NCBI GenBank assembly: GCA_964441335.1
Contig: CAYTUI010000001.1
Location: forward strand, 961 to 64,960
Direction: 5' to 3'
Source: an uncultured Gammaproteobacteria bacterium
Lineage (GTDB): Bacteria > Patescibacteriota > Patescibacteriia > UBA1558 > 2-01-FULL-52-15
DNA length: 64,000 nt
This document shows positions 10,339 to 33,212 of the stretch, piece after piece; position 1 is the stretch's first letter, and every line of letters begins with the position of its first letter. The position numbers and the translations under genes are program-made. The notes below the pieces were generated by a model. That model had not been told where the DNA came from. It did no database searches and was given only the letters and a program-made list of their open reading frames with translations.

Positions 10339-10339
10339 A

Positions 10340-10903
10340 TTACCACCAGACTTTTTTTATTTTGAAATAATAGCCGATTAAGTTAGAGACTGGATGAACC
10401 GCCAAAGTTATAATAACAGCCGCCCAGACAATTTCCGGAGTCCAGACGACTAATAGCCAGGTTAGTAGAAAAAAACCAACAATAAAATCTAGTTGGTCAA
10501 ACACCGGCCAAGCATTGCCGGATGTAATTTTAACCCGTCTTTTAATAAAACTTTTAACTAAATCTCCGCCTAAAGCTCCTAGGCCAGCCAAAAATCCGAA
10601 CAGCAAATAATTCAGCTCCCAGTAGTTAATCAAGCGTATACTGTCCAGCCAGCCTATTTGCTGGAAAAATGTCTGTATAATAACTGTTATCATGGCTACC
10701 AGCACGCCAATTATTAATCCCCGCCAAGTTTTACCTTTGCCCAATAAATCCTGGCCGAAAAGTTTTAATCCACCGTCAATCGGTTTAGCCAGTTGTTTCC
10801 AATAGCCAAGACGTTGGACAATCACTGGCGCCATGTTTGCTAAATAAACGGGCAACAGTAAATAAATGGTGGCCAGAATCAGCAGTATGTCTAATGTCAT
10901 CAA
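10340..10903 (-). CDS. CarS/CdsA-like (DUF46) CTP-dependent cytidylyltransferase-family membrane protein
   Basis: Multi-TM protein with DGG..FG...GKGKTWRG and GGDL.KS.KRR motifs resembling CDP-archaeol/CDP-diglyceride synthase-like DUF46 proteins. Confidence 0.5.
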   Translation of the reverse strand: MMTLDILLILATIYLLLPVYLANMAPVIVQRLGYWKQLAKPIDGGLKLFGQDLLGKGKTWRGLIIGVLVAMITVIIQTFFQQIGWLDSIRLINYWELNYLLFGFLAGLGALGGDLVKSFIKRRVKITSGNAWPVFDQLDFIVGFFLLTWLLVVWTPEIVWAAVIITLAVHPVSNLIGYYFKIKKVWW

Positions 10904-11982
10904 GCGTTTTTTAAAATTCTTAAAGTTTCAGCGGCTGTTTTTTCCCAGCGGAATTCTTGGCTACGTTTCAGTCCCTTGGTAATAAGGTCGGTCTGTAGGT
11001 TTTTGTCATAGTATAGTTTATTTATCGCCTCAACAACCTCGGGAATATTATTGGCGTCAACCAGTAGGGCGGCGTCCCCGGCAATTTCTGGCATACTGGC
11101 GGCACGATTGGTAATAATGGCTGTTTGGCAGGCCATAGCCTCAATTAAGCCAAAACAAAAGCCTTCATATTTTGCCAAATGGATATAAATAGCCGCTTCG
11201 GATATAAGTTTATATTTTTCTTCTTCATTAATCCAGCCGTGACGAATAACCTTTTCTTCCAGCCGAAACTGTTTGATCAGATTTTCAGCTTCTTGCCAGC
11301 CGCGGCTAGGATAACCGACTAAGTGTAAACTTATTCTTTTGCCCCAGCTAGTCTTTTGCATAGCCGCAAAAATCCTGATGAGTTGAGCAATATTTTTTTT
11401 ACTTTCCAGCCGCCCGACAAACAGCAGATAATTTTTTTTCTGTTTTGACGCTGGAGGAATTTTTTCGGGATTACTTAAACCAAGATAAGTTACCTGAATT
11501 TTGTCGGCGGCAATTTGATAGTACTTGATAATTTCGCTTTTAGAAAATTGTGAAACAGTGATAATTTGGCTACAAAATTTTTTGGCCCACTTAGCAGATA
11601 ATCTTTGGTAAGCTCGCCCCTTCCACGACAGATCGTTTTTATACGCTTCATAGGCCACGTCGTGCAGAGTGGTAACGGTTCTTTTGGGGGAGATGATAGG
11701 GATAATTGAAGCCGGGATAAATAAGACGTCAGGAGGGTTAAACAGCATTTCTAAAGACAGGCGAACTTGCGTCCAGAGATATTTAAAGGGCCAATATAGT
11801 CGGCGATATTCCACATTAGGACCCAAGTTCAGCAGTTCGGTTTCAGGAGCGCTATTGAAATAAAGCCTAAAAGTTATAGTTGGATCCAGTTTGGGCAGTT
11901 CCTTGATTAAAAAAAAGGAGTACCATTCTACCCCGGTTTTTTGTGGTTTGTTGGCCCTGGTCGCATCAATGCCTATAATCAT
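10900..11982 (-). CDS. Family GT4 glycosyltransferase
   Basis: C-terminal EX7E-type motif (YEGFCFGLIEAMACQTAII) and GT-B fold pattern. Confidence 0.85.
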   Translation of the reverse strand: MIIGIDATRANKPQKTGVEWYSFFLIKELPKLDPTITFRLYFNSAPETELLNLGPNVEYRRLYWPFKYLWTQVRLSLEMLFNPPDVLFIPASIIPIISPKRTVTTLHDVAYEAYKNDLSWKGRAYQRLSAKWAKKFCSQIITVSQFSKSEIIKYYQIAADKIQVTYLGLSNPEKIPPASKQKKNYLLFVGRLESKKNIAQLIRIFAAMQKTSWGKRISLHLVGYPSRGWQEAENLIKQFRLEEKVIRHGWINEEEKYKLISEAAIYIHLAKYEGFCFGLIEAMACQTAIITNRAASMPEIAGDAALLVDANNIPEVVEAINKLYYDKNLQTDLITKGLKRSQEFRWEKTAAETLRILKNA

Positions 11983-12348: not shown

Positions 12349-12435
12349 GCCGCGGTGGCGGAACTGGTAGACGCGTAGGTCTCAAAAACCTATAGGAGTT
12401 CTCCTGTGAGAGTTCGAGTCTCTCCCGCGGCACCA
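12349..12435 (+). tRNA. tRNA-Leu (anticodon CAA), type II, CCA encoded
   Basis: GCCGCGG-TG-GCG..CGC, anticodon stem TAGGT/ACCTA with loop CTCAAAA, long variable arm, T-arm GAGAG-TTCGAGT-CTCTC, 3' CCGCGGCACCA. Confidence 0.8.
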
Positions 12436-12499
12436 AATGGAAGTAATATACACAGGTTCGCCTGCCCGCCGTAGCTTTAGCGTAGGCGGGACCCCGACC

Positions 12500-12650
12500 A
12501 GCGGCACCATTTAGTTAGTAGCTAGTAGTTAGTAGTCAGTAGCTTGCAGCCAGTAGCTTATGGAGTAGAGCTCGTAGTCCTTAAGTTCGTCAGTTCTTAA
12601 GTTCATCGGTTCATAGGTTATTAAGCATTAAGACTTAATACTTAATTATT
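12500..12650. repeat. Composite GTAG-rich (AGTTAGTAGCTAGTAG...) then GTTCTTAAGTTC-rich low-complexity tract
   Basis: Seen directly; same architecture as 8160-8460. Confidence 0.7.
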
Positions 12651-12656
12651 ATAATC

Positions 12657-13073: not shown

Positions 13074-13176
13074 ATAAATACCATTTCAGGTTAGATTAAA
13101 AGAACAAATTATTGCTGAACTTGTCAAAATTATTGGACATGGTATACTATGCAGTGTAGTAGAAAATAAGAGATAT

Positions 13177-13563
13177 ATGGCAAAAAACAGTATAAAAATA
13201 TTTGGCGATTTGGAAGCAGAAATAATGGAAATCGTCTGGAAATCTGGCTCGGCATCAGTCAGGGATGTTCTATTGGCTTTAGAGAAAAGAAGAAAAATCG
13301 CCTATACCACCGTGATGACTGTTATGGCCAGGCTGTATGAGAAGGGCATTTTAAAACGCAAGATGGATGCTTGTAATGCTTTTATATATTTACCGACTCA
13401 AGGTAAACAGGCTTTTATGCAAAAAGCCTCTGAGAAAATAATCAAGGGATTCTTGAAGGAATACGGTGATGTTGCTGTAGCTCAATTTGTGGGTATAATT
13501 GAAACATCGGATGCTAAACATTCCGACGAATGGAAAAGAAAATTGAGAGGTCTGATTAAATAA
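13177..13563 (+). CDS. BlaI/MecI/CopY-family winged-helix transcriptional repressor
   Basis: N-terminal E.EIMEIVW..G..SVRDV........AYTTVMT...RL..KG pattern of the penicillinase-repressor/CopY family; paired with M56 gene downstream. Confidence 0.8.
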   Translation: MAKNSIKIFGDLEAEIMEIVWKSGSASVRDVLLALEKRRKIAYTTVMTVMARLYEKGILKRKMDACNAFIYLPTQGKQAFMQKASEKIIKGFLKEYGDVAVAQFVGIIETSDAKHSDEWKRKLRGLIK

Positions 13564-13567
13564 TATT

Positions 13568-14629
13568 ATGCAACGATCTTTTGCGCAGAAAGCCAATCTG
13601 ACATTTGTAGAAATTATAGCTATTGTTTTAAGCACAGTTGGCGTGGTTATTTTTTTATTTTGGGAAATTTATCAAAGAGTTTATTTATATGGTGGTGTCT
13701 TAATTCATAAATTACTAACCGCCTGTGGTTGTACGCAGATGGCCCAGTTAATTGCTATGCACCCATTAATATTTATTGCTGTAATTACTCTCGGTTTGGT
13801 CATTATGACCTATTTATTTTATACAGTTTATCGATTAATAAAATTAATTATTCAGACAAGAAGGTTTGTATCTTTATATTTAAAACGGGCAAAAGACCAA
13901 CACTCAACAAAATTGCGCGATGTTGTAGCTGGTTTAAATATTGATGCATCCAAGGTCATTGAAATTAGAGATGTTAGGACAGTGGTGTTTTGTTTTGGTC
14001 TTTGGCGTCCCAAAGTATGTATTTCTAGCGGTTTGATAAAAATGCTGGACAAAGGCGAGTTAGAAGCTGTTTTACTACACGAATATCATCACTTGATTTC
14101 CAGGGAGCCTGTTAAAATGTTTGCTATAAAATATTTTCAAAGTATTTTCTTCTTTTTACCGGGAATAAAAGCTGGTGTAAATAAGTATCTGACATATTCA
14201 GAATTAGCTGCTGATGAACGGGCGACGAATAATTTTCTTGATAAATTGAAGTTGGCCAGAGCTTTATACAAAATATCTGAAAAAGAGGAGAACTTACTTT
14301 TGCGAACTGGCTTGGCCTTATCTTTTTTCAGTTCCGTTATTGGGGTACGGGTTAGTAAGCTTTCAAATAATGACTACGTGCCTAATTTTAAATTGCAGGT
14401 CACGAGGTTTTATACGGGGTTAGGTATAGCAATCGTGGTTCTTTTGGGTATGATGTTATTTTTAACAGATAGCTCAAAAGCGTTCGCCATGCATGACACG
14501 GGCAGTTGTATTTCAAATATCAACGGAACTCAAAATAACGGCTTGGTTTGCGATGATAATACTCAGCAATCAGCCGGCTTAAATGAAGGCAATTACTCGG
14601 CAGCGTTAACCAACTGTAAAATGAAGTAA
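13568..14629 (+). CDS. BlaR1/M56-family membrane zinc-peptidase (signal transducer/antirepressor-like) without a recognisable sensor domain
   Basis: HEXXH (LLHEYHHLISREP) in a multi-TM context following a BlaI-like gene. Confidence 0.7.
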   Translation: MQRSFAQKANLTFVEIIAIVLSTVGVVIFLFWEIYQRVYLYGGVLIHKLLTACGCTQMAQLIAMHPLIFIAVITLGLVIMTYLFYTVYRLIKLIIQTRRFVSLYLKRAKDQHSTKLRDVVAGLNIDASKVIEIRDVRTVVFCFGLWRPKVCISSGLIKMLDKGELEAVLLHEYHHLISREPVKMFAIKYFQSIFFFLPGIKAGVNKYLTYSELAADERATNNFLDKLKLARALYKISEKEENLLLRTGLALSFFSSVIGVRVSKLSNNDYVPNFKLQVTRFYTGLGIAIVVLLGMMLFLTDSSKAFAMHDTGSCISNINGTQNNGLVCDDNTQQSAGLNEGNYSAALTNCKMK

Positions 14630-14796
14630 AGGTGGTTGTGGATAACCGGGGCTGGACAAAATATATAAACCCTACTATACTGTGTAGTAGGGTTTATTAA
14701 TTAACCATAAAATACTAATTTAAAGGCTTTTTGCGAGTTATTCAATGTTAACATCAGTAAAATATTTAATTTCATTAAACTAACTAAGAATTATTT

Positions 14797-16563
14797 ATGA
14801 GTAAAATTACAGTTCCTATAAAGGGCATGCACTGCCGGTCGTGTGAGATACTAATTGAGAATAATCTACATAACGTACCGGGTGTAAAAAAAGTTGAGGT
14901 AAGTCATAAAACTGGCAGAGCTGATATTTTTTATCACCATGAATTGCCGGCTGGAGATTTGATTGATCACGCTGTCCAAAACGCCGGTTATAGTATCGGG
15001 AAGAAAGATAAATTGGCTTGGCTTTCAAGAGACAGAAATGATTATCTCAATTTGCTCAAAGGAGCGGCAATTTTATTAATTCTGTATATTGCTGCCGAAC
15101 GTTTCGGTTTATTTAGTTTGGGGGTTAATACGCAAAGCACAAGTTTGTTTGTTGCCTTGATTGTTGGTTTGGTTGCGGGAATTTCCACTTGTATGGCTCT
15201 GGTCGGCGGATTGGTATTGAGTCTATCTGCGCGTCATGCTGAATTGCATCCAGAAATTTCCACAAAACAAAAATTTGTGCCGCACCTGTACTTCAATTTA
15301 GGCAGAATATTAGGCTTTGCTTTTTTAGGAGGCGTTATTGGGTTGGTTGGCTCCGTGGCCAGACCATCAACTGGCGTGCTTGGTTTTATGACCATAATCA
15401 TAGGTGGCGTGATGATTTTCTTGGGACTCAAGTTAGTTGAAATATTCCCGATATTAAAAGATAAATCCATATCTTTACCTAAGAGTATCTCAAAATTTTT
15501 TGGCTTAGGTCGGGAGCAAAAAGAGTATAGCCATAAAAATTCAGTTATCACAGGCGCCTTAACATTTTTCCTGCCTTGCGGTTTTACTCAAGCTATGCAG
15601 TTATACGCTGTTTCTACAGGTAGTTTTGGAAAGGGTGCATTGATTATGGGATTATTTGCTTTAGGAACCGCACCTGGATTACTCGGGGTTGGTGGTTTGG
15701 CCTCGGTCTTTAAGGGTAAAAAAGCTAAAGTATTTTTTGCTGGCACTGGGTTAGCGGTTATGTTGTTGGGTTGGTTTAATGTTGCCAATGGTAGCCAGTT
15801 GTTTTTTCAGGGCAGAACACAAGCCAATGTGGGCGTAGCTAATTCCACGGGAGTTCAGGAAGTTAAAATGGCTCAAGGCAGTTCAGGTTATTCGCCCAAT
15901 GTATTTACAGTAGAAAAAGGTAAAAAGGTAAGATGGATCATTACCTCGACTAATCAATTTACCTGTGCCAGCTCACTTGTTATGCCAAAATATGGCATTA
16001 ATAAAGGTCTGCAAAAAGGTGAAAATATTATTGAATTTGTGCCGACAGAGGTTGGGGAGATTGCTTTTTCCTGTTCAATGGGCATGTATCGGGGGAAATT
16101 TATAGTGGTTGAATCAGGTCAGGTGGGCTCTGCTGGTAAAAATTTGGCAGTTGCGCCAAGTGCTAACCTGCCCGCAGGTGGCGGGTGCGGTGGTGGAGGC
16201 GGAGGAGGGGGCTGTGGCGGGTGCGGTGGTGGTGCAAAAAAACCTTTAGATGCGGTTTCAACCAACGCCAAAGAGAACGCGACCGGTGAACAAGTAATAC
16301 AGTCGGAATATACTTTAGCCAAAGATATCGTGCCCAATAAATTTACAGTGAAAAAGGGTCAACCGGTTAGGTTTGAAGTTAACGTTAAGGAAAACGGGCG
16401 GGGTTGTATGAGTACGATTATGATACCAAACTTGGTTAATGACCCTCAGTATTTGCAGGGTGGGACAAAAATCGCCCTGACTTTTACGCCGGATAAAGCT
16501 GGGGACTATAATATTACTTGTGCTATGGGAGTGCCTCGAGGCGTAATTACCGTAACAAATTAA
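14797..16563 (+). CDS. HMA-domain fused to a DsbD_2/UreH-like polytopic permease with a Gly/Cys-rich linker and two C-terminal cupredoxin-like domains
   Basis: N-terminal GMHCRSCE (MxCxxC HMA); permease with conserved ISTCMA and FLPCGFTQAMQ cysteines; GGGCGGGGGGGGCGGCGGG linker; two ~90-aa domains with C....C.MG.Y/C.MGVPRG. Confidence 0.6.
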   Translation: MSKITVPIKGMHCRSCEILIENNLHNVPGVKKVEVSHKTGRADIFYHHELPAGDLIDHAVQNAGYSIGKKDKLAWLSRDRNDYLNLLKGAAILLILYIAAERFGLFSLGVNTQSTSLFVALIVGLVAGISTCMALVGGLVLSLSARHAELHPEISTKQKFVPHLYFNLGRILGFAFLGGVIGLVGSVARPSTGVLGFMTIIIGGVMIFLGLKLVEIFPILKDKSISLPKSISKFFGLGREQKEYSHKNSVITGALTFFLPCGFTQAMQLYAVSTGSFGKGALIMGLFALGTAPGLLGVGGLASVFKGKKAKVFFAGTGLAVMLLGWFNVANGSQLFFQGRTQANVGVANSTGVQEVKMAQGSSGYSPNVFTVEKGKKVRWIITSTNQFTCASSLVMPKYGINKGLQKGENIIEFVPTEVGEIAFSCSMGMYRGKFIVVESGQVGSAGKNLAVAPSANLPAGGGCGGGGGGGGCGGCGGGAKKPLDAVSTNAKENATGEQVIQSEYTLAKDIVPNKFTVKKGQPVRFEVNVKENGRGCMSTIMIPNLVNDPQYLQGGTKIALTFTPDKAGDYNITCAMGVPRGVITVTN

Positions 16564-16573
16564 AATAATCATT

Positions 16574-16777
16574 ATGCAAATAAATTTTACAATTACCAAC
16601 ATCGACTGTGCGGCTTGTATTAAATTAAGCCAGACAGCGCTCAAAGGTTTGCCCGGGGTGCTAAGAGTGGAGGTAAAAAATAACGGTTTAGTGTTGATAG
16701 AGTCCGAACAGGATATTGCCTGGGAGGAAATCACTGAAGCCTTAGTTAAGGTCGGTAAAAACGCCAAACAAAATTAA
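16574..16777 (+). CDS. copZ: CopZ-like copper chaperone (HMA domain)
   Basis: 67 aa, NIDCAAC metal-binding motif. Confidence 0.8.
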   Translation: MQINFTITNIDCAACIKLSQTALKGLPGVLRVEVKNNGLVLIESEQDIAWEEITEALVKVGKNAKQN

Positions 16778-16795
16778 GTTACTATTAATAAATAT

Positions 16796-17839
16796 ATGCA
16801 CACAAAATTGGACATAAAAATCAGAGGAGCGGTCGGAGTTGACGATCTTAAATTAATCGAAGGTAATTTAAAATCACAGAGCGGAATCAATACCATTAGA
16901 GCCATGCTTACTAAAGGACAGGCTATAATTAGGATTGAATTTGACAGCAAAAAAATTAGTCAACAACAAATTTACGCAATAATTAAACTGAGTGGCGATT
17001 TTAGCGTTGAAGAGCAAAGTGAAACAGATACGATACACTCCAAAGAGCTAGAGAGAGCGCCTCTAAAATCAGTAATGTCTCTGCCTGCTATGGTTAACTA
17101 TGGCTCAGAAGCTAATCCAAACAGAGCTCCATTTATTTGGGGTCTGTTGTGCGGTATTTCTATAGGTTTGAATATAATTTTTGGATTCTTGTTAATGACA
17201 GGCGGTGCTAATAACTTGCTAGCCACGAATTTATTTGCTAAGACAAATGGTCAGGTTGTCCAACAGGCAGTACAGCCACAGGCTGTTGCTCCTTCACCAA
17301 GCCAAGACGCTGGCGTGATTCAAACTTTTAATATCACTAAGAGTGATCATGTCCGCGGTGATTTCAACGCCCCGGTTACCTTGGTGGAGTATTCAGATTT
17401 TCAGTGTCCGTTCTGTGGTAAACACTTTCCGACCCTAAACAAGGTTTTGAGTGATTATACTGGGAAAGTTCGTTTGGTTTACAAACATTTCCCTTTAGGT
17501 TTTCATGAAAATGCCCAGAAAGCCGCGGAGGCGTCAGAGTGCGCTAACGAGCAAAATAAATTTTGGGAGTATCATGATAAATTATTTGAGAATCAGGCGA
17601 GTGGTTTTAGTCTAGCTAATTTTAAACAGTGGGCCAATGATTTAAGTCTTAATGCCAGTAAATTCAATGATTGTCTGGACTCTGGCAAGTACGCTAGCAA
17701 GGTACAGGCTGATGCAACTGATGGTCAAAGTAGAGGTGTACAAGGCACTCCGACGACATTCGTTAACGGGCAGGCGGTATCAGGAGCGGTTCCGTATGAA
17801 TCATTGAAAGCGGTCATTGATCAAGTTTTAAATAATTAA
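16796..17839 (+). CDS. DsbA-like thioredoxin-fold oxidoreductase with N-terminal HMA-like (Cys-less) domain and one TM segment
   Basis: C-terminal [12 protein letters not shown] (CPFC active site) in a DsbA-family context; N-terminal ferredoxin-like beta-alpha-beta-beta-alpha-beta pattern. Confidence 0.7.
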
Positions 17840-17847
17840 TCAAACCT

Positions 17848-20811
17848 ATGGATAGAACTGTAAAATTAGGCATTGAGGGAATGCATTGCGGGTCTTGTGA
17901 AAAAATTATTGAAATGCAATTGCTGGAGATCCCGGGAGTAAAAGAGGCGAAAATAAGCTTTCAGACTGGGGAAGGCCAGATTGTTGTCGGATCAAATGTC
18001 AGTACTGACCAGTTGGTTGAAGCTGTTACTCAGGCTGGTTATAATAGCCGAATCATTAATGACCAAAATATCAACGATCAAGTGAGTAGTCAAGATGAGT
18101 CAGATGTTATTATTGAACAAAGAATTGTTGATTCTGAATCGCCAGTCAAGATTAGACTGGAATCATCAGTCCTGACGGATGGGGAATTTTCACAGAAAGA
18201 CAGTGTACCCAGTTTTAATGGTAAGGTTAATCACATTAAGAAAGGAGAGTTCGAAATTCCTCAAGGTCGGCCGGACATTGAAAAAATTATAAAGAATTTA
18301 TTTAGTGTATCAAAAATTAATCAAATGTTTGGTTTAATCTCGGACGAAGCCCCGGCCGGAGCCCCTGCCATAATCGCATCATCAATGCCCGTTACGGGTG
18401 TTGAATCGGTTTCAGTAGCAACAATACCTGATGGCCTTAAAGATAAAAAGGAAGAGCAAGTGCAGTTGACTTTAATAGGTATGCACTGCGCATCATGTGC
18501 TGGATTGATTGAGCGTGGACTTAAGAAAGTTTCCGGGGTTAAAACTGCTAATGTTAATTTTGCGGCAGAAAAAGCTAGAATTATTTTTGATTCTTCGCTG
18601 GCGTCGGTTAATCAGCTCATCAGTGCAGTGGAAAAATCTGGTTATAAAGCACGTTTGACAGATAGTAGCGATCCCGAAGCAGATAGGAGACGACGTGAAA
18701 ATGTAATAAAGGGCTATTGGAAAAAATTCGTCTGGAGTCTTGTTCTAAGTTTGCCGTTGTTATATTTTATGTTTTTGGATTTTTTCTTTTTCCTGCCTGG
18801 ACGGATGCTCTTGTTACCATATATAGGCGTGGTGTCGTTGATTCTTACGATACCGGTGCAATTTATCATTGGCTACAGTTTCTATCAGGGCATGTGGAGT
18901 AGTTTGCGAATGAAGACCTTTAATATGGACAGCCTGATTGCTATTGGTACCAGCACAGCCTTCTTTTATAGTTTATGGCAATTTCTTGATTATGTCGGTC
19001 GCACAGGCAGTGTAATTGGTTTGAATGGAGAAAAAATTCCCGAGCTATATTTTGAAACAGCGGCTTTCCTGATAACTTTCGTTATACTAGGTAAGTGGCT
19101 AGAAGCTAGGACCAAAGGTGCAACATCGGATGCTATAAAGAAGTTGATGGGGCTTCAGGCTAAAACAGCTAGGGTCATAAAAAATGGCGTGGTGGCAGAT
19201 GTACCGATTGAACAGGTTATCGCTGGCGATACTATTGTTGTCCGTCCGGGTGAAAAAATACCGGTCGATGGCATAGTCAGTAAAGGGCAGTCCAGTGTGG
19301 ACGAATCCATGATTACCGGCGAAAGTATCCCAGTAGAAAAAAATGTCGGTGATACGATTATCGGGGCTACGATTAATAAACATGGCAGTTTTGAGTTTAC
19401 CGCCACCAAAGTGGGAAGTGAAAGTACCCTGGCGCAGATTATTCGTGTTGTGGAGGAAGCCCAAGGGTCCAAGGCGCCAATTCAGGCATTTGCCGATAAA
19501 ATTTCCGCCTATTTCGTGCCGATCGTAATTGTTTTGGCTATCCTTACGTTTTTGATTTGGTATCTGTTGCTCGGTGCCACTTTGACTTTTGCTCTCATGG
19601 CCTTTACCTCGGTCATAGTTATTGCCTGTCCTTGCGCATTAGGTTTAGCCACGCCTACCGCAATAATGGTTGGCACCGGTAAAGGAGCCGAGCATGGCAT
19701 TTTGATTAAAGGCGGTGAACCGCTGGAAGCGGCCTGTAAAATTAAAGCTGTGGTCTTTGATAAAACCGGGACTTTAACCAAAGGCAAACCAGAAGTGACC
19801 GATGTTATAAGCGCGGGTCTTTCTGATGAAGAAGAAATTACTTCTATCGTTGCGAGTTTGGAAAAACTTTCCGAGCATCCCTTGGCCGAGGCTATTGTTA
19901 AATACGCCGAAGAAGAAAGTATCTCGCTGCGGGAAGCCACAGAGTTTCGAGCGATTCCAGGACATGGTGTGGAAGCTAGTATTGATGGTCAAAAATATTT
20001 TTTTGGTAACCGTAAACTTGTTACTGATGTCGTTAATTTGGGTCAAGAAGTAATAGAAAAAATTGAGCGCAAGATTCGTAAACTTGAAGAGAGTGGTAAA
20101 ACAGTAATGATTTTGAGCTCGACACAGGAAATTCTTGGTCTGATAGCGGTCGCCGATACTATTAAGGAAACCTCAATGGAAGCAGTGCGGGCTCTACAGG
20201 ATCGTCATATCGAAGTCTTTATGATTACCGGTGATAATCGTCGGACAGCCGAAGCGATTGCCCGGCAGGCTGGAATAAAAAATGTCTTGGCCGAAGTACT
20301 GCCAGAAGACAAAGCTAATGAAGTAAAAAAATTGCAGGGAACCGGTATTAAAGTAGCTATGGTTGGCGACGGTATTAATGACGCACCCGCCTTAGCTCAG
20401 GCTGATTTAGGCATTGCCATGGGCAGTGGCACTGATGTGGCAATGGAAACGGGCGGAATTGTTATTATCAAAAATGATTTACGGGATGTTATTACTGCCA
20501 TTCAGCTTAGCCGTGAGACAATGGGTAAAATTAAGCAGAATATGTTCTTTGCTTTGTTCTATAATGTCATTGGCATTCCTATTGCCGCTCGCGTTTTTAT
20601 GGCTTTCGGGTTGGTACTTAAACCGGAGTTAGCTGGTCTGGCCATGGCGTTCAGTTCAATTTCGGTAGTTTCCAATTCCTTGCTCTTGCGCTGGTTTCGG
20701 GCAGGCAAACCTAATTATTTTTCGCAGATCGCTCCTTATGTGTTAGCAATTATTTTTACCTTGGTTTTTGTGGAATTTAGTAGAATTAGTTCTGGCATGG
20801 CCACTACTTAA
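17848..20811 (+). CDS. copA: Copper-translocating P1B-type ATPase CopA with two N-terminal HMA domains
   Basis: GMHCGSCE and [11 protein letters not shown] motifs, TGES, CPC ([12 protein letters not shown]), [15 protein letters not shown]. Confidence 0.95.
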
Positions 20812-20822
20812 CTTAATGACGT

Positions 20823-21332
20823 ATGAAAAATAATAAAAAATTGGACAATTTCAGTTTGTGGGTGATTATTGGTACTGTTATTTTATTATCCTTGATGATT
20901 TTTTGGGGTTCTTCAGTCCAAAAGGGTGAAGCGACTAGCAATGATGATAAAGGTAGTCAACTTCAAGCCTCCGAGAGCAGCTATGACTTCGGTTCAATTT
21001 CCATGGCCCAAGGAAAAGTTACAAAAGTTTTTAGTTTTAAGAATAACACTTCAGAAGCGATTAAGGCCAAAAAACTTTACACCTCATGTATGTGTACTAA
21101 AGCCACTCTAATTAAAACTGATCAGACCCTTGGTCCTTTTGGTATGCCAGCACATGGGTTTATTCCAGAAATTAACGTGAATATTGAGCCAGGAGAAGAG
21201 GCTAAAATTGAAACCGTATTTGATCCGGCTGCGCACGGTCCAGCTGGCGTCGGTCCCATCGCCAGAGAAGTAATATTAGAAACTAGTGATGGTAAGTTAA
21301 TATTTAAATTTAACGCCCAAGTAACTCCTTAA
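20823..21332 (+). CDS. Secreted DUF1573-family protein
   Basis: Signal peptide; YDFGSI...G.....F.F.N......I......SCMCT pattern resembling the DUF1573 conserved SCGCT core. Confidence 0.5.
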   Translation: MKNNKKLDNFSLWVIIGTVILLSLMIFWGSSVQKGEATSNDDKGSQLQASESSYDFGSISMAQGKVTKVFSFKNNTSEAIKAKKLYTSCMCTKATLIKTDQTLGPFGMPAHGFIPEINVNIEPGEEAKIETVFDPAAHGPAGVGPIAREVILETSDGKLIFKFNAQVTP

Positions 21333-21342
21333 GACCCAAAGC

Positions 21343-22128
21343 ATGAAAAACCAAAGATTATACTTTATTTTATCGGTGTTAGGGATACTCATAGCCGCTT
21401 TATTGTTATTAAAATCCAGTACTGGCTCCGCGCAGTTTATTTGGAATCTCTCCAAGGGCGGAACCTTCCTTTTTCCTTTGGTTTCTTTATCGGCTCTGAT
21501 TGACAGCATTAATCCCTGTGCTTTTTCCATCTTACTTTTGACCATCGCATTTTTATTCAGTCTGGACACTTCAAGGTCTGATCTGATTAAAATTGGCTCG
21601 GCCTATATCAGTGGAATTTTTTTGGCCTATTTACTGATTGGTCTGGGTATTTTGGGTGCTTTGCACATTTTTAACACCCCGCATTTTATGGGTAAACTGG
21701 GAGCATTTATATTGATTGCCATGGGCCTGATAAATTTGCTTGGCCAATTCATTCCGCGTTTTCCGATAAAATTACAAATTCCCGGCTTCGCGCATAACAG
21801 AATGGCAGAGTTGATGAAAAAGAGTTCGGTATCGGCGGTATTTTTCTTAGGTATGCTGGTTGGGCTTTGCGAATTTCCCTGTACCGGCGGCCCTTATCTG
21901 ATGGTTTTGGGTTTATTGAATGACGGCGCATCATATGTCAGAGGCCTGTTGTATCTTGTTTGGTATAATATTCTGTTTGTTCTACCGTTAGCGGCAATTT
22001 TATTCGTGGCCAGTGATAAAATATTGCTAACCAAATTACAGAATTGGAAGCGGAATAATTTGAATCAGACCAGATTAATCGGTGGCATAATTATGGTCGT
22101 TTTGGGAATAGTCATATTATTAATCTAA
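21343..22128 (+). CDS. CcdA/DsbD-family thiol:disulfide interchange membrane protein-like
   Basis: 6-8 TM helices with conserved Cys in TM1 (NPCAFSIL) and in a CxxC-like CEFPCTGGP segment. Confidence 0.5.
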   Translation: MKNQRLYFILSVLGILIAALLLLKSSTGSAQFIWNLSKGGTFLFPLVSLSALIDSINPCAFSILLLTIAFLFSLDTSRSDLIKIGSAYISGIFLAYLLIGLGILGALHIFNTPHFMGKLGAFILIAMGLINLLGQFIPRFPIKLQIPGFAHNRMAELMKKSSVSAVFFLGMLVGLCEFPCTGGPYLMVLGLLNDGASYVRGLLYLVWYNILFVLPLAAILFVASDKILLTKLQNWKRNNLNQTRLIGGIIMVVLGIVILLI

Positions 22129-22132
22129 AATT

Positions 22133-22642
22133 ATGAGAGAAATAAGAAATTATCAGGACTTAATGCAAAAGGTTAATCAGATCAAACAAGACGGCAAAAT
22201 TGATTTGTCCATGGAAGAGGATTTGAGTATTGCTGTCATGAATTTAATCAGTTTGGAGGAGCATTTCTTTTTTACGGCGGAAAAAACCGGTAAAGACTCC
22301 TATATTAATCTATTGGAAACAGTTAGAGATATGAGGAAAGAGCTTTTGGCTATGATGATAAAAAAGTATGAGGGAGAGACTTGGTGTATTGCCAAACATT
22401 TGCTGGCCGCCTCAATGAGATTAATGGAAGTAGGGACAAAATTACAGTCTGGGGGGCAGCCTGATCAGGCCAAAAATATGTTTGCTAAATCTTACGAACT
22501 GTTCAATTTATTTTTTGCCGTACGGCTTAAACTTATTGACTTGCCTGAACTAAAAAATAACGCAAAGTCAGAAATTAATTTGGATCAGCCATGGACCAAG
22601 GAAGAGATAATGAATAAATTATTGGATTGCTGCAAAGAATAA
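22133..22642 (+). CDS. Hypothetical cytoplasmic protein
   Basis: ORF with RBS; no recognisable motif. Confidence 0.45.
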   Translation: MREIRNYQDLMQKVNQIKQDGKIDLSMEEDLSIAVMNLISLEEHFFFTAEKTGKDSYINLLETVRDMRKELLAMMIKKYEGETWCIAKHLLAASMRLMEVGTKLQSGGQPDQAKNMFAKSYELFNLFFAVRLKLIDLPELKNNAKSEINLDQPWTKEEIMNKLLDCCKE

Positions 22643-22878
22643 ATCAAATTTTTATGCATCACGATTATAAAGGAGATCATGATAGCCACAAAAAAGTAAT
22701 GTGGCTAATGATGTTAATCTGTGCCCTGCCGATATTATTTATTCTCTTCTCCGCAGCTAAGACACGTTTTTTCGCTATATTATTTTTAGCAGCTTGCTGT
22801 ATTGATGGCCATTTTTTGCTGATGAAATTATTGGGGCATTCAGGCCATACTAATAAGGACAAGCCAGATAAAGAGTAA
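22627..22878 (+). CDS. Small His-rich membrane protein (possible metal-binding)
   Basis: HHDYKGDHDSHKK N-terminus, two TM helices, C-terminal HSGHTNKDKPDKE. Confidence 0.4.
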   Translation: MLQRINQIFMHHDYKGDHDSHKKVMWLMMLICALPILFILFSAAKTRFFAILFLAACCIDGHFLLMKLLGHSGHTNKDKPDKE

Positions 22879-23025
22879 TATATTCTTTGGCAACTGGTTC
22901 GGCATATTTAATCCGCAGTTAGAAGTTAGTCGAATATTTGCTGATAAAAACGTCCGCGGTTTAAAAAAAGAGGTCATTCTGGCTAGTGGGTATACATGAT
23001 ATAATACAGTGGCAACAATATTATC

Positions 23026-25290
23026 ATGCAGACAATAAAAAATAGTCATTATTCTAGCAATCAGAAAAAAAAGTGCTCTGATTGTATCAACTGTAGTGCT
23101 TGTCAGGTAAATCATCTAAGCGTCAGCTGTGGCTGTGACAATGAGGCCAAACAATTCGAATACCGCGGACATATTCACAGCGAGCATCATGATCATGGAG
23201 GTCGGGCGCCAATCACAGCGCAAACCAAAAAAGCACATTCTGGTCATGCTAGCGCTAAGATGAATCATGCAGATCATGCGGCTGCCATGAGTAATCCGGC
23301 GATAGCGAAATTTATGGAGGAAGATATGCGCCGCCGTTTTTTTATCTCTCTGATATTGTCCATACCGACTTTTCTGTATTCCCCTGTGGGCATAGATTTT
23401 TTTAAATTAAATTTACCTACTCCTATTCCCGTCAATTTGTTGCTGTTAATTTTTACCACGCCAATCGTTCTTTGGGCTGGCTCAATTTTTATTAGCGGGA
23501 CATATCATTCTCTGCGGGCAGGAAAATTAAATATGTCAGTATTGATTTTTACCGGGGTCATGACCGCCTATTTGTTTAGCCTTTTTTTGACCTTTACGGG
23601 TGGTCAGGAAACATTTTATGAAGCCGCGGCCTTGTTGGTGACTTTTGTACTCTTTGGGCACTGGATGGAAATGCGTTCGCGTCGGGGAACATCGGATGCT
23701 TTGCGCGCGCTTTTTGATTTAGTACCGCCACAGGCGATTATAATTCGTGACGGTCGGGAAATGACTGTTGCTAGCGCGGAGATAATTAATGGCGACGTGG
23801 TAATAATTAAACCTGGCAATAAAATTCCTGTTGATGGAGAGGTGGTTGAAGGGGACACGTATATTGATGAATCTTTAGTAACTGGCGAGTCGCTGCCGGT
23901 GCATAAGGCTAGTGGCAGTTCGGTGGTTGGGGGGTCAATCAATAAGAATGGCACGATTAAATTCAAGGCCACCAAAGTCGGTAGTGATACTGTTTTAGCT
24001 CAAATCATTAAACTGGTTGAGAGTGCCCAGAATTCCAAGGCACCGGGGCAGAGGATTGCGGACAAAGCGGCTGCGATATTAGTAATTGTTGCTATCGGTT
24101 CAGGCCTAGCCGCTTTTATTGGATGGTACGTGATAGCTGGCGTCAGTTTTATCATAGCTTTGACTTTTGCTGTTTCGACTATTGTTATTGCTTGTCCGGA
24201 TGCTTTGGGGTTGGCGACTCCTACTGCGGTGGCCGTGGGCACCGGCATAGGTGCTAAACATAATATTCTAATTAAAGATGCCACAACGCTGGAAAAAACC
24301 GCTAAAATTAATGCCATTGTTATGGATAAAACAGGTACCTTGACCAAAGGACAACCGGAGGTAACCGATGTTGTTTCCTTTAACTCTTCTTTGGCAGACG
24401 AGGCTGCTGTATTTCAACTGGTGGCATCAATAGAAAAAAATTCAGAGCACCCTTTGGCCAGCACTATTATCAAGAAAGCTGTCAAAGATAAAGTTGAATT
24501 TTTACCCCTTCATAACTTTGCTGCTATTACTGGTCAGGGCGTTAAGGGGACGACTACTGATAACCAGCAAATATTTTTAGGCAACATAAAATTATTAGCT
24601 GACGCTGGCATTTCTTTAACGGCAAAAGATCAGCAAAGAGTGCAATCTTTACAGACTGAAGGCAAAACAGTAATGATATTGGCCAAAGATAAAGAGGTTT
24701 TAGGGGTTATAGCTGTAGCCGATACTGTGCGCGATAGCTCGAAGAGGGCAGTAGAATTACTGCAAAGGATGAAAGTTGAAATAATTATGATTACTGGTGA
24801 TAATATTCAGACGGCGCAGGCCATCGCGGCCAAGCTGGGCATTGAACGCGTGTTTGCCGATGTCTTGCCGGCGGACAAAGCAAACTGGATAAAAAAACTT
24901 CAAACTGAAGGCAAATTCGTGGCTATGGTGGGTGATGGCATTAATGACGCGCCAGCCTTAGCCCAGTCTGATATTGGTATTGCTATCGGCGCCGGAACAG
25001 ACGTAGCTATAGAGACAGCTAGTATTGTTTTAATGAAATCCGATCCTTTGGATATCGTCGCTGCTATTCGCCTTAGTAAGGCGACGGTAAATAAAATGCG
25101 GCAGAATTTATTTTGGGCGGCAATTTATAATCTAATAGCCATTCCTTTTGCGGCTGGCGTTTTTTATAACTCTCTAGGATGGTCTTTACGACCGGAAATC
25201 TCGGCCTTACTGATGTCAGTGTCATCAATTGTTGTCGCTACCAATGCGGTATTGTTAAAAAGAGTAGAACCAAAATTAACAGTTAATTAG
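23026..25290 (+). CDS. CopB-like heavy-metal P1B-type ATPase with Cys/His-rich N-terminus and atypical CPD transmembrane motif
   Basis: N-terminal CSDCINCSAC..SCGCD and HIHSEHHDHGG.. His-rich stretch; TGES; IACPDALGLATP (CPD instead of CPC/CPH); DKTGTLT; GDGINDAP. Confidence 0.9.
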   Translation: MQTIKNSHYSSNQKKKCSDCINCSACQVNHLSVSCGCDNEAKQFEYRGHIHSEHHDHGGRAPITAQTKKAHSGHASAKMNHADHAAAMSNPAIAKFMEEDMRRRFFISLILSIPTFLYSPVGIDFFKLNLPTPIPVNLLLLIFTTPIVLWAGSIFISGTYHSLRAGKLNMSVLIFTGVMTAYLFSLFLTFTGGQETFYEAAALLVTFVLFGHWMEMRSRRGTSDALRALFDLVPPQAIIIRDGREMTVASAEIINGDVVIIKPGNKIPVDGEVVEGDTYIDESLVTGESLPVHKASGSSVVGGSINKNGTIKFKATKVGSDTVLAQIIKLVESAQNSKAPGQRIADKAAAILVIVAIGSGLAAFIGWYVIAGVSFIIALTFAVSTIVIACPDALGLATPTAVAVGTGIGAKHNILIKDATTLEKTAKINAIVMDKTGTLTKGQPEVTDVVSFNSSLADEAAVFQLVASIEKNSEHPLASTIIKKAVKDKVEFLPLHNFAAITGQGVKGTTTDNQQIFLGNIKLLADAGISLTAKDQQRVQSLQTEGKTVMILAKDKEVLGVIAVADTVRDSSKRAVELLQRMKVEIIMITGDNIQTAQAIAAKLGIERVFADVLPADKANWIKKLQTEGKFVAMVGDGINDAPALAQSDIGIAIGAGTDVAIETASIVLMKSDPLDIVAAIRLSKATVNKMRQNLFWAAIYNLIAIPFAAGVFYNSLGWSLRPEISALLMSVSSIVVATNAVLLKRVEPKLTVN

Positions 25291-25307
25291 GGAAGGAGGT
25301 GTATAAT

Positions 25308-25442
25308 ATGATTAATTATAGTTATATGATGGGCAGTTCGGGAGGCGGCTTGATGTTTTTTTCATGGACCACTTATATTCTGTTAACTGCATTGCTGATT
25401 CTTGGCATAGCCGCTTTATGGAAATATATTAATAAAAAATAG
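25308..25442 (+). CDS. Small membrane protein (44 aa), not in ORF track
   Basis: Strong RBS GGAAGGAGG 7 nt upstream of ATG; MINYSYMMGSSGGGLMFFSWTTYILLTALLILGIAALWKYINKK, one TM helix. Confidence 0.45.
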   Translation: MINYSYMMGSSGGGLMFFSWTTYILLTALLILGIAALWKYINKK

Positions 25443-25443
25443 T

Positions 25444-25698
25444 ATGATTAGTGCGAAACATTTACTTAAAGTCAGTTTAGTATGGGTCAATATCGTTTAT
25501 GTAATTTGTTTTTTGGTCGTGGTAATTTATCCGCCGCTAAGGGAACAATTCATGCTCTACGCGTTACACACTAACGTGGAGTTAGGCCAGGACGTGACCA
25601 CGGTTACTACGTTTATTACAGGCTTGATTTGGTGGAACATTTTAGCGGTGTCGGCAGTTGGACTGTTCGCTTGGTTAGACCATAAAATTAAGAAGTAG
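25444..25698 (+). CDS. Small hypothetical membrane protein
   Basis: 84-aa ORF, two TM helices. Confidence 0.4.
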   Translation: MISAKHLLKVSLVWVNIVYVICFLVVVIYPPLREQFMLYALHTNVELGQDVTTVTTFITGLIWWNILAVSAVGLFAWLDHKIKK

Positions 25699-25852
25699 AG
25701 TTACTTAGGGGACATTTTGGTGATCCTGGTAATTGATGTTGATTAATGTTGGGATTTGTTTATTTAGGCGATGTTATAAAATTTTTCGTCTTTTAGAGTT
25801 TCTATAATGACTGATTTTTTATGATTTTAAGATTGAAAATTTAATTGAAATT

Positions 25853-26878
25853 ATGTCAGACAGCAAAACATATGTATTTCACGTGGCCGGCATGCACTGT
25901 TCGGCCTGCGAGATATTAATTGAAGACGAATTAGGAGCGGCTCCGGGCGTTAGCCAAGTGAAGGCCAATTTAGCTAAAAATCAGGTGACAGTTACTTTGG
26001 ATAATCCGGGCGAGCCAGAAGCTATTACCAAAGAGTTATCGGCTAAAATTGCCTCCAAAGGCTACAGCCTGCAGACTGAAAAAATTAAGCCTAACCGGCA
26101 GTGGCAAGATTTCTGGTATGCCGTGCCTTTGGCCGCTATTCTGATTATCATATTTGTCTATCTGCAAAAGATTGGTTTAGTAAACTTAGTTAGTGGCTCA
26201 AGAGTTAATTACGCGACAGCTTTGTTAATCGGCGCTATTGCTTCTGTGTCCACCTGTTTAGCGGTAGTCGGAGGATTAACTTTATCGTTGTCGGCTAATT
26301 ATGCTAAGAGTGGCGCTAAATTTTTACCGCACGTAATGTTTCACACTGGACGATTGGTCGGTTTTTTTCTATTAGGTGGTTTACTGGGTTTGTTAGGGAA
26401 GTCATTTAATATGAGTTTAAGTATCGGAAATACTTTGGGTTTGGTAGTAGCTGTAATTATGTTAATACTAGGGTTAAATTTATTGGATGTTTTTAAGTTC
26501 ACAAAGAAATTACAGTTTAGGATGCCGAAAATTACGGCCAAGCATGCTACTAGACAATCAGTTAAAGGCGGGCGACTAACGCCGATAATAATTGGCGTAA
26601 TAACTTTTTTTCTGCCCTGCGGTTTTACGCAATCCATGCAGGTTTATGCTTTGACAACTGGTAGTTTTCTAACCGGCGCTCTGACCATGGCGACTTTTGC
26701 TTTAGGTACGCTACCTGCTTTGGCTTTATTGTCTTTTGGCTCATTTAGCCTAGCTCATAAATCCTGGTCAGGTATATTTTTTAAGACCGCTGGTCTGATA
26801 GTTATGACCATGGCGTTATTTAATCTGGCCAATATTTTAGCAGTGATGGGCATTATTAATCCAATCTTTAATTTTTAA
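25853..26878 (+). CDS. HMA-domain fused to DsbD_2/UreH-like permease (paralog of 14797..16563 without cupredoxin domains)
   Basis: GMHCSACE HMA motif; conserved VSTCLA and FLPCGFTQSMQ positions shared with the paralog. Confidence 0.6.
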   Translation: MSDSKTYVFHVAGMHCSACEILIEDELGAAPGVSQVKANLAKNQVTVTLDNPGEPEAITKELSAKIASKGYSLQTEKIKPNRQWQDFWYAVPLAAILIIIFVYLQKIGLVNLVSGSRVNYATALLIGAIASVSTCLAVVGGLTLSLSANYAKSGAKFLPHVMFHTGRLVGFFLLGGLLGLLGKSFNMSLSIGNTLGLVVAVIMLILGLNLLDVFKFTKKLQFRMPKITAKHATRQSVKGGRLTPIIIGVITFFLPCGFTQSMQVYALTTGSFLTGALTMATFALGTLPALALLSFGSFSLAHKSWSGIFFKTAGLIVMTMALFNLANILAVMGIINPIFNF

Positions 26879-26886
26879 TTATAAAA

Positions 26887-27279
26887 ATGAAAAAAATTAT
26901 TATTCCAATCGTCATAATAGTTGTTTTAGTGGGAGGGGTATATTTATTAGGTAAGCAGGCGAGTGGCGGCACCGATAATACTGGGATTTCCGACAACGTT
27001 AAACAAGTTGGCGGACAACAGGTAGTAGAGATTTTTGCCAAAGGCGGCTATTCGCCAAGAGTTGCCAATGCTCAAGCCGGGGTAGAAACAGTTTTGAAAA
27101 TTTCCACCAACGGAACGTATGATTGCTCTTCCAGTTTGGTAATCCCCAGCTTAAATTACCGTAAATTTTTACAACCGACCGGCGTGGAAGAGATTACTAT
27201 CCCTAAAGATAAAGCCATCGGCAAATTGCGAGGACTATGCGGTATGGGTATGTATTCTTTTGAGATTAGGTTTCAGTAG
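26887..27279 (+). CDS. Small secreted cupredoxin-like protein
   Basis: Signal anchor; domain homologous to the C-terminal modules of 14797..16563 (YDCSSSLVIPSL...GLCGMGMY). Confidence 0.5.
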   Translation: MKKIIIPIVIIVVLVGGVYLLGKQASGGTDNTGISDNVKQVGGQQVVEIFAKGGYSPRVANAQAGVETVLKISTNGTYDCSSSLVIPSLNYRKFLQPTGVEEITIPKDKAIGKLRGLCGMGMYSFEIRFQ

Positions 27280-32449: not shown

Positions 32450-32459
32450 TCGTTGAAAG

Positions 32460-33188: not shown

Positions 33189-33212
33189 CAGTTTCCAGGA
33201 GAGGAGTTTTCA

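Follow-up and report, generated by a model that had tools for sequence, protein, structure and literature searches.

A putative copper(I) defence cluster of a groundwater Patescibacterium with a BlaI/BlaR-type regulatory pair and cupredoxin-linked DsbD_2 permeases

According to reviews, the copper protein CupA is confined to a few streptococci, and its copper sites are a bis-thiolate site (S1) and a Met-rich site (S2) (PMC7558416). In Synechocystis sp. PCC 6803, degradation of the BlaI-family regulator PetR requires both copper and the sensor-less M48/M56 protease PetP; PetR lacks the ligands of CopY, the ligands proposed for PetP are two Met residues in a loop, and the operator reads GAC-N5-GTC. 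Proteins that combine HMA and DsbD_2 domains have been inferred to be members of the CsoR copper regulon in gut Firmicutes (PMC4938975), and a CPD motif was noted earlier as a novelty in three rhizobial pumps (PMC5552934). In the literature searched, nothing on DsbD_2 together with copper was found beyond the CsoR meta-regulon paper, and no report linked Patescibacteria, or the candidate phyla radiation (CPR), to CupA or cupredoxin copper genes. The subject of this analysis is a gene cluster at 13177-27279 of a 64,000-nt stretch of contig CAYTUI010000001.1 (assembly GCA_964441335.1; the whole stretch is referred to as the window), in which a BlaI/BlaR-type pair precedes an HMA-DsbD_2-cupredoxin fusion gene, copZ, copA and a second pump gene.

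The cluster consists of 16 co-directional open reading frames (ORFs) on the + strand with short gaps, as seen in the ORF list and translations, and intergenic gaps of 167, 147, and 154 nt imply four transcription units (Table 1). The genes named in an initial annotation of this DNA were all recovered at their positions, and its domain calls were reproduced by Pfam and NCBIfam profile searches judged against the cutoffs of the models; its gene list had missed one 44-amino-acid (aa) ORF. The copper and thiol-redox identity that it assigned to the cluster is supported. Synteny was compared across 80 species loci around the fusion gene (labelled L001, L005, etc.). The order blaI-blaR-fusion-copZ-DsbA-copA-DUF1573-ccdA-like-169aa is repeated in L005 (Falkowbacteria) and L036 (Magasanikbacteria), and L006 has the same order from the fusion gene onward, but without blaI and blaR. 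This recurrence argues that the clustering is not due to chance. Overall, the cluster is probably a copper(I) defence island, likely to serve against silver as well, of a type typical of Patescibacteria and derepressed by BlaR-type cleavage of its repressor. Each of its parts is of a known kind, and PetRP already shows copper-triggered proteolysis of the BlaR type. What is new is the apparent coupling of a BlaR-type switch to copper efflux with a defined operator, the fusion of CupA-like domains, predicted to face outward, to an HMA-DsbD_2 permease, the repetition of a three-module Cys plan, and the CPD pumps.

The first gene encodes a winged-helix repressor of the BlaI/MecI/CopY family. Its best NCBIfam model is CopY_TcrY (TIGR02698), which is matched over the DNA-binding half only (47.5 bits against a cutoff of 122), and it has no C-terminal CxCxxxxCxC Zn/Cu(I) site. 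Its sole Cys (Cys66) varies among homologues, and with no conserved Cys or His the repressor can be rejected as a direct metal sensor. In the C-terminal half, Phe104 is invariant in nine homologues and lies near the position of the cleavage-site Phe of BlaI and PetR, and is the only pointer to cleavage of this repressor. CopY-type operators can also be discarded, as the cop box TACAnnTGTA has 0 matches in the 64-kb window.

A different palindrome is found at two positions, upstream of blaI and upstream of unit 2. It has a 17-bp consensus, TACTACAnnnTGTAGTA, and a dyad spacer of 3 nt that sets it apart from the cop box. The 18-mer TACTATnCnGTGTAGTAG occurs exactly twice in the window (13145-13162 and 14673-14690), with 0.17 occurrences expected even if up to 3 mismatches are allowed. 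Both copies overlap the -10 box of a predicted promoter, one upstream of blaI (site score 10/12, with an extended TG) and one upstream of the eight-gene unit. At the latter, the palindrome extends to AAACCC...GGGTTT, and this longer stem was also picked up as a possible terminator. Two copies of the consensus are present in all eight of the related loci that carry blaI. The first is located a few to ~35 bp upstream of blaI in each of them; the second precedes the fusion gene in close relatives and lies between blaR and a DsbA-like gene in four distant ones (L040, L048, L066, and L069). Additionally, TTGACA or TTGACG is found 14 nt before the second palindrome in five loci, with a -10 box (TACAAT, TACACT, or TATACT) inside it. 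As far as sequence can tell, this layout is that of a repressor occluding the -10 box. No such operator precedes 23026 or 25853, even at 3 mismatches, and units 3 and 4 are probably constitutive or reached by read-through. Thus, of the inverted repeats that had been suggested upstream of 13177, 14797, and 23026, the first two exist in a form other than the CopY box and the third does not. Rfam detected no riboswitch in the 107-nt leader, and its matches in the window are six tRNAs only.

The -35 box of promoter 2 is preceded, at a distance of 8 nt, by TGTGGATAA, the reverse complement of the consensus DnaA box TTATCCACA, which is present in two copies in the window (0.54 expected). Perfect copies lie 8-12 nt upstream of the fusion-promoter -35 box in the window and in L001 (3316), L005 (9904), L009 (5966), and L036 (6450), and perfect or one-mismatch copies are also found before some blaI promoters. 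The 9-mer is fairly frequent elsewhere in the loci and may be a general promoter-proximal element.

The gene for a BlaR1-like membrane zinc protease follows blaI after a gap of 4 nt. This protein has no penicillin-binding sensor domain: the chain ends 46 residues past the last transmembrane (TM) helix, and the NCBIfam BlaR1 equivalog models, which have cutoffs of 400 or more, give it 34 bits. Across 54 sequences of its family, H171, E172, H175, and E212 are invariant, and conservation reaches at least 90% at C53, C55, H65, P66, C314, C328, and C337; the alignment also shows a fourth Cys in the tail, close to the C-terminus. An AlphaFold model (predicted local distance difference test score, pLDDT, 77) shows three TM helices, a disordered tail (311-353), and the CGC..(M/N)HP motif in a hairpin between TM1 and TM2. 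Given a protease domain in the cytoplasm, the CGC..MHP motif and the tail Cys cluster are predicted to lie outside the membrane. The family is small (67 clusters), and its named members belong to Patescibacteria, Falkowbacteria, or Uhrbacteria. By analogy, then, the proteolytic derepression proposed in the initial annotation is plausible, in view of the lack of a conserved repressor Cys, the 4-nt gap to the protease gene, and the PetR/PetP precedent; the likeness to CopY does not extend to its metal site, which is absent.

It is unlikely that the pair answers to a signal unrelated to copper (envelope stress, thiol stress, or another ligand) and owes its position to a lineage-specific accident of gene order. 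Such an accident would fit the occurrence of the pair within 10 kb of the fusion gene in only 8 of the 80 loci and the small size of the protease family, and the second operator before the DsbA-like gene in four of the eight blaI loci would fit such a signal. However, all eight of these loci lie within copper clusters, the operator at the fusion-copZ-copA promoter of the window's lineage is conserved in five loci, and the conserved protease residues (CxC, His, and Met) are soft-metal ligands. Moreover, the pair occupies the slot directly upstream of the fusion gene that is held by a CsoR-family metal repressor in L014, L043, and L068, which is further support for a metal signal. In L051, L063, and L076, this slot contains a histidine kinase. 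Many Patescibacteria loci without blaI encode, just upstream of the fusion gene, a membrane-anchored Cys/Met/His-rich protein of 130-157 aa that has no Pfam match (L002 9520-9960, L003 9479-9919, L020 4592-5041, L021 3155-3628, L025 9439-9912, L041 6459-6932, L045 1270-1671, and others). This protein may be a further copper-binding partner.

The gene behind the second operator encodes the fusion protein, in which an HMA domain, a DsbD_2 membrane domain (111 bits), and two Cupredoxin_1 domains joined by a Gly/Cys-rich linker follow one another. DsbD_2 is the only family matched by the membrane domain at E<=0.01 in Pfam; the name TauE/SafE sulfite exporter is present in the source annotation only, and the non-metal permease that had been considered as a refutation of the copper assignment was thus not found. 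Cupredoxin domain 1 matches S. pneumoniae CupA (2mry/4f2e, E 5.6e-11) and the cupredoxin-type domain of pneumococcal CopA (4f2f). CupA is also the first match of domain 2 and of a stand-alone 130-aa protein encoded at the end of the cluster, and the fused and stand-alone domains match it in both sequence and fold. In domain 1, C390 and C426/M428/M430 align with the conserved Cys and the C-x-M-x-M segment of the Cu(I)-site region of CupA. Together with the HMA CxxC, C132 (STCMA), and C261 (LPCGFTQ), these residues are invariant in 81 homologues, and the copper-site residues on which the initial annotation had made its reading depend are therefore retained. In domain 2, the ligands are C537 and C575-A-M577-G-V, and the second Met is lost. 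In an AlphaFold2 (AF2) model, the membrane domain has seven TM helices, with C132 in the STC motif of TM1 and C261 in the LPC motif of TM4, where the helix is kinked. Because seven spans place the two ends of the protein on opposite sides and the K/R-rich loops are on the HMA side, the cupredoxin domains are probably outside the cell, opposite a cytoplasmic HMA domain.

The last two genes of the cluster are a split version of this fusion. Their 341-aa permease shares the STC and LPCGFTQ motifs and ends after the last TM helix, and the 130-aa cupredoxin is encoded next to it. The only Protein Data Bank (PDB) match of the latter is CupA (2mry), with whose Cys and CGMNM its own Cys and CGMGM are aligned. 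It has an N-terminal hydropathic anchor (MKKIII...), and a cupredoxin that is tethered behind an MKK-hydrophobic anchor supports the outward placement of its fused counterparts.

The initial annotation described such fusions as uncommon, which does not hold. The best 120 clusters at 90% identity contain DsbD_2 with HMA and/or Cupredoxin_1, nearly all of them with all three domains, and a scan of one genome per species placed relatives in at least 594 species genomes. Two cupredoxin copper-site motifs are present in 49 of 76 inspected homologues and one in 26. The gene is also linked to copper efflux: copA follows the fusion gene in 67 of the 80 loci, with copZ between them in 30. The reading frame of the fusion is intact in the window and in three other assemblies. 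A JGI assembly from this organism matches the window over 21 kb except for one deletion of 1 nt, located in the GGTGGTGGTG tract of the Gly/Cys-rich linker (window 16226-16235; L081 12619-12627), which splits the 588-aa fusion into genes of 483 and 113 aa. This deletion is either an assembly error or slipped-strand variation.

The remaining genes of unit 2 combine copper transport and thiol chemistry. Behind copZ, a DsbA-like protein has one TM helix (111-138) and an extracytoplasmic thioredoxin domain; it matches the Rcas_1661 (seleno)lipoprotein family with E 1e-38, below the cutoff of that family, and its N-terminal domain has the HMA fold without CxxC (hhalign 95.4%, E 1.8e-8). The translation of CopA contains the motifs CPC, YNVIGIP (YN(x)4P), and MAFSS (M(x)2SS). 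Three genes then form a trio. In the DUF1573 protein, S88, C89, C91, T92 (SCxCT), and M108 are invariant in 19 homologues. The NPC59 and C176xFPC180xGG motifs of the CcdA-like protein are likewise invariant, and the protein scores 22 bits with DsbD_TM, below the cutoff of 27; its SfLAP and ArsG matches are also below their cutoffs. Distant homologues of it (L033 5465, L043 15712, L059 10732, and L067 1418) carry a further domain of ~190 aa at the N-terminus, with YYNEACxxC as its conserved motif; the window copy has no such domain. The 169-aa protein has no match in Pfam, NCBIfam, or PDB, even at permissive E-values. The DUF1573 gene precedes the ccdA-like gene in most of the eight loci that carry the latter, and the 169-aa gene follows it in L005, L006, L036, and L067 and stands apart from any ccdA-like hit in L037. 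The unit closes with a small His-rich protein, whose start is most likely the ATG at 22654, as in the 74-aa gene call of public assemblies.

The fusion, its split paralogue, and this trio follow one plan, in which a cytoplasmic Cys module, a two-Cys membrane module of the DsbD superfamily, and an outward beta-sandwich with Cys are combined. In the main rival reading, which is less likely than metal transport, the three Cys-lined membrane modules would be electron conduits of the DsbD/CcdA type and not metal channels. Electrons would then pass from the cytoplasmic CxxC or CC modules (HMA and the 169-aa protein) through the two membrane Cys to the outer CupA-like and DUF1573 modules, where they would keep Cu(I)-binding Cys reduced or reduce Cu(II) to Cu(I), and only the two ATPases would move copper. 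The membrane domains belong to the DsbD superfamily and have one conserved Cys per half (TM1 STC and TM4 LPC), the sets are parallel in all three cases, distant CcdA-like homologues have the YNEACxxC N-terminal domain, and the DsbA-like gene is a conserved second target of the repressor, all of which would fit this route. To judge from NCBIfam names, relatives of the HMA, DsbA-like, and DUF1573 proteins occur in selenoprotein forms, which are commonest in redox proteins. Additionally, CupA reduces Cu(II) in vitro (PMC5646241, PMC7558416). In contrast, the flanking domains are metal-binding folds (HMA and CupA-like) and not thioredoxin folds, Pfam found no gene for thioredoxin or thioredoxin reductase in the cluster, and across the 80 loci the fusion is tightly linked to copZ-copA and not to dsbA. 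Metal exporters are also numerous in the LysE superfamily, and the nickel-uptake protein UreH falls within Pfam DsbD_2, which counts against a purely electron-carrying role.

If the modules do carry metal, the direction has to be considered. The order of an outer soft-metal binder, a membrane Cys pair, and a cytoplasmic HMA domain mirrors MerP/MerT/NmerA, the HMA domain has weak NCBIfam matches to MerTP fusions and MerP, and ligand exchange has no built-in direction; the fusion might thus import copper in an inward relay, from capture by the outer CupA-like domains via the membrane Cys to HMA or CopZ, and on to CopA or a cuproenzyme. This is very improbable. The cluster contains neither a reductase nor an obvious cuproenzyme (Pfam), import would be futile under copper stress, and the gene belongs to the operon of an efflux pump, controlled by a repressor of the stress type, and lies behind CsoR in other lineages. 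For the outward direction, a bolder and still tentative proposal is that the cluster contains three copies, one fully fused, one split in two, and one split in three, of a single ATP-independent trans-membrane 'thiolate wire' that moves Cu(I) by ligand exchange onto the cell surface and is induced by an extracytoplasmic copper-sensing protease of the BlaR type. If true, Patescibacteria would widely possess a copper exporter or sequestration system of a class not recognised before.

In the favoured interpretation of the cluster as a copper(I) defence island, the repressor would block the promoters of both blaI and unit 2 in the absence of stress. Copper at the outer face, or thiol damage driven by it, would be sensed through the CGC..(M/N)HP hairpin and the four-Cys tail of the protease, whose cytoplasmic HExxH domain would then cleave the repressor, in the manner of the copper-dependent degradation of PetR through PetP in Synechocystis. 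CopZ and the P1B-1 ATPase CopA would export cytoplasmic Cu(I). The fusion would most likely take Cu(I) out of the cytoplasm by thiolate ligand exchange and hand it to a surface-bound sink, or else buffer the Cu(I) that CopA has expelled. Under copper stress, exposed thiols would be kept correctly reduced or oxidised by the HMA-like-DsbA protein and the DUF1573/CcdA-like/169-aa trio, analogous to Scs/DsbD, and units 3 and 4 would add a CPD pump with two small proteins and the split permease/cupredoxin. Several points weigh against this scheme. Copper sensing by the protease is argued from conserved Cys, His, and Met residues and from analogy, and the four tail Cys could be mere structural disulfides in a tail that is modelled as disordered. 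The second operator lies before the DsbA-like gene in distant loci, so that the signal may be thiol stress. The membrane side of the cupredoxins was deduced from helix count and charge bias, and the copper handled by S. pneumoniae CupA is described as cytoplasmic, which is the opposite side (PMC7558416). Finally, units 3 and 4 have no recognisable operator.

The second ATPase, in unit 3, was called CopB-like in the initial annotation, but the CPH of CopB is replaced by CPD (ACPDALGLATP); its further motifs are YNLIAIP (YN(x)4P) and MSVSS. The N-terminus has no HMA hit and contains HIHSEHHDHGG...HSGH...HADH and a Cys cluster of the CxxCxxCxxC type, and the best PDB matches are CopA chains. The ACPDALGLATP motif was found in 14 of the fetched CPR loci, compared to 3 with CPH and 71 with CPC. 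CPD pumps are thus a recurrent P1B sub-type in these loci and a common second pump. The 44-aa ORF behind this gene has a strong ribosome-binding site, GGAAGGAGG, and its stop codon lies 1 nt before the start of the DUF5676 gene; it has no match in Pfam, NCBIfam, or PDB, permissive E-values included. Homologues of the DUF5676 protein are found near copper genes in L006, L012, and L036.

Table 1. Features of the cluster, in window coordinates
Feature	Coordinates	Strand	Basis or detail
Unit 1, blaI-blaR	13177-14629	+	
Promoter 1, upstream of blaI	-35 13121-13126; -10 13143-13148	+	TTGTCA, TATACT, spacing 16
Operator 1, TACTATGCAGTGTAGTA	13145-13161	+	overlaps -10 box of promoter 1
BlaI/MecI/CopY-family winged-helix repressor, 128 aa	13177..13563	+	Penicillinase_R PF03965, E 1e-24
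BlaR1-like M56/M48 membrane zinc protease, 353 aa, HEYHH	13568..14629	+	Pfam M56 43.6 bits (cutoff 31), M48 39 bits
TGTGGATAA, reverse complement of consensus DnaA box	14637..14645	+	upstream of promoter 2
Promoter 2, upstream of eight-gene unit	-35 14653-14658; -10 14676-14681	+	TGGACA, TATACT, spacing 17
Operator 2, TACTATACTGTGTAGTA	14673-14689	+	overlaps -10 box of promoter 2
Unit 2, eight genes	14797-22878	+	
HMA (CRSC) - 7 TM DsbD_2 (Cys132, Cys261) - two CupA-like cupredoxins, 588 aa	14797..16563	+	Pfam
CopZ-like HMA metallochaperone, 67 aa, CAAC	16574..16777	+	HMA 26.7 bits (cutoff 24.8)
Cys-less HMA-like domain - 1 TM - DsbA-like thioredoxin domain (CPFC), 347 aa	16796..17839	+	Thioredoxin_4 E 2.5e-34, DSBA E 1e-24
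P1B-1 Cu(I)/Ag(I) ATPase CopA, two N-terminal HMA, 987 aa	17848..20811	+	TIGR01511 631 bits (cutoff 397)
Membrane-anchored DUF1573 Ig-like protein	20823..21332	+	DUF1573 43.5 bits; N-terminal TM
LysE/DsbD-superfamily CcdA-like membrane protein, 261 aa	21343..22128	+	weak DsbD_TM, SfLAP, ArsG matches
Conserved soluble 169-aa protein, invariant WC85 and C-terminal DCCKE	22133..22642	+	
Small 2-TM protein, His-rich ends	22654..22878	+	74 aa from ATG; 83 aa from TTG 22627
Unit 3, second P1B ATPase and two small proteins	23026-25698	+	
P1B-3-like ATPase, Cys/His-rich N-terminus, 754 aa	23026..25290	+	TIGR01511 574 bits
44-aa hydrophobic ORF (MINYSYMMGSSGGGLMFF...; MINYSYMMGSSGGGLMFFSWTTYILLTALLILGIAALWKYINKK)	25308..25442	+	read from sequence
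DUF5676 2-TM protein, 84 aa	25444..25698	+	Pfam 30.8 bits (cutoff 27.6)
Unit 4, split permease and its cupredoxin	25853-27279	+	
HMA (CSAC) - DsbD_2 permease without cupredoxin, 341 aa	25853..26878	+	DsbD_2 99.5 bits, HMA 50 bits
Membrane-anchored stand-alone CupA-like cupredoxin, 130 aa	26887..27279	+	Cupredoxin_1 33.8 bits

A comparison with oral bacteria or Actinomycetota, as had been suggested at first, does not apply to this organism. Identical proteins are encoded on groundwater metagenome contigs (JGI 3300009031; ENA PRJNA292723), and all named relatives are Patescibacteria, including Falkowbacteria, Magasanikbacteria, and Buchananbacteria. The host is a groundwater Patescibacterium, a member of the CPR that is neither oral nor associated with Actinomycetota. 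The upstream NUDIX gene is not kept beside blaI in related loci, and the location of the island therefore varies. There is no evidence for a mobile island: the G+C content (GC) shows no anomaly over 12-28 kb of the window, and the Pfam matches of the ORFs scanned on both flanks include nothing that points to an integrase or transposase.

Downstream, the NrtR, PnuC, and NadR-like genes are NAD-related (Pfam) and outside the copper cluster. These low-GC genes are directly followed by the first of two high-GC blocks (30000-38000 and 42000-46000; GC 0.55-0.59, compared to 0.39-0.45 elsewhere in the window), which encodes a NadD-NAD kinase fusion, a NUDIX protein, NAPRTase, and a glutamine-dependent NAD synthetase; the second block includes adenylosuccinate synthetase. 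Both blocks look like foreign DNA. Upstream, a spacer (12436-12656) between tRNA-Leu(CAA) (12349-12435) and the NUDIX gene contains the short degenerate repeats AGTAGCT, AGTAGTT, and AGTAGTC, followed by TTAAGTTC and TTAAG. Further upstream, a row of lipid genes (8431-11982) encodes a YegS-type lipid kinase, PgpA, a CDP-alcohol phosphatidyltransferase, a GT4 glycosyltransferase, and a CarS-like protein of the CDP-archaeol synthase family (10340-10903, - strand), an archaeal-type family name in a bacterial genome.

The genomes of Patescibacteria are tiny, and yet at least 594 species representatives keep an HMA-DsbD_2(-cupredoxin) gene, usually by copA. This gene is therefore probably important, likely for life at mineral and host surfaces. 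If CupA-like sites do face outward and are wired to a Cys-lined permease, the chemistry of CupA would reach beyond a few streptococci and into an entire bacterial radiation, and would serve there in a new route of either copper export or redox maintenance.

Comparison with known systems places the individual parts of the cluster. As in P1B-3 CopB, the second pump has no HMA domain, a His-rich N-terminus, and YN(x)4P; it differs in the N-terminal CxxCxxCxxC-type cluster and in having CPD instead of CPH, and CPD/MSxSS is shared with a sub-type described from three Rhizobiales pumps (PMC5552934). The membrane modules resemble those of DsbD/CcdA and ScsB/ScsC, with one essential-looking Cys in each half and thiol-active outer partner domains, and, as in Scs, a DsbA-like protein is encoded in a copper-tolerance context. 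However, the partner domains are HMA and cupredoxin or Ig-like and not thioredoxin, and the CcdA-like protein is below the Pfam threshold. Similarly, the cluster and MerP-MerT-NmerA both have Cys pairs on the two sides of the membrane and within it, with HMA at the cytoplasmic end, but the membrane fold here is DsbD_2 and not MerT, there is no reductase, and the copper-pump context points to export.

The cluster and S. pneumoniae copY-cupA-copA both place a BlaI/CopY-family repressor, a cupredoxin-fold Cu(I) protein, and a P1B-1 pump side by side. Pneumococcal CupA is membrane-tethered with a Cys/Cys/Met/Met site (structures 4F2E/2MRY; CopA metal-binding domain 4F2F). In contrast to the pneumococcal system, the repressor here has no CxCxxxxCxC, the cop box is absent, and CopA has HMA domains in place of the cupredoxin-type metal-binding domain to which CupA docks. 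The cupredoxins are fused to or encoded beside an HMA-DsbD_2 permease and are predicted to face outward, and only the 130-aa paralogue has the single N-terminal anchor of CupA. With S. aureus BlaI/BlaR1 and MecI/MecR1, the regulatory pair shares the repressor fold, the M56 domain, the gene order, and what appears to be an autoregulated promoter with a TACA/TGTA dyad, but its protease does not have the C-terminal acyl-enzyme (penicillin-binding) sensor domain of BlaR1 and MecR1. To judge from published descriptions, PetR/PetP is similar in its adjacent genes for a BlaI-family regulator without the Cys motif and a short HExxH protease without a penicillin-binding domain, in candidate metal ligands located in a loop before the protease domain, and in an operator of 3-bp half-sites five bases apart (TAC-N5-GTA in the cluster). 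The candidate ligands are two Met in PetP and CGC..(M/N)HP with a four-Cys tail here, and four TM helices are predicted for PetP compared to the three modelled for the cluster protease. PetRP controls the plastocyanin/cytochrome c6 switch and has been reported only in cyanobacteria, whereas the pair described here sits with efflux genes; if it responds as proposed, it would be a second independent case, after PetRP, of copper sensing by BlaR-type proteolysis, here for efflux.

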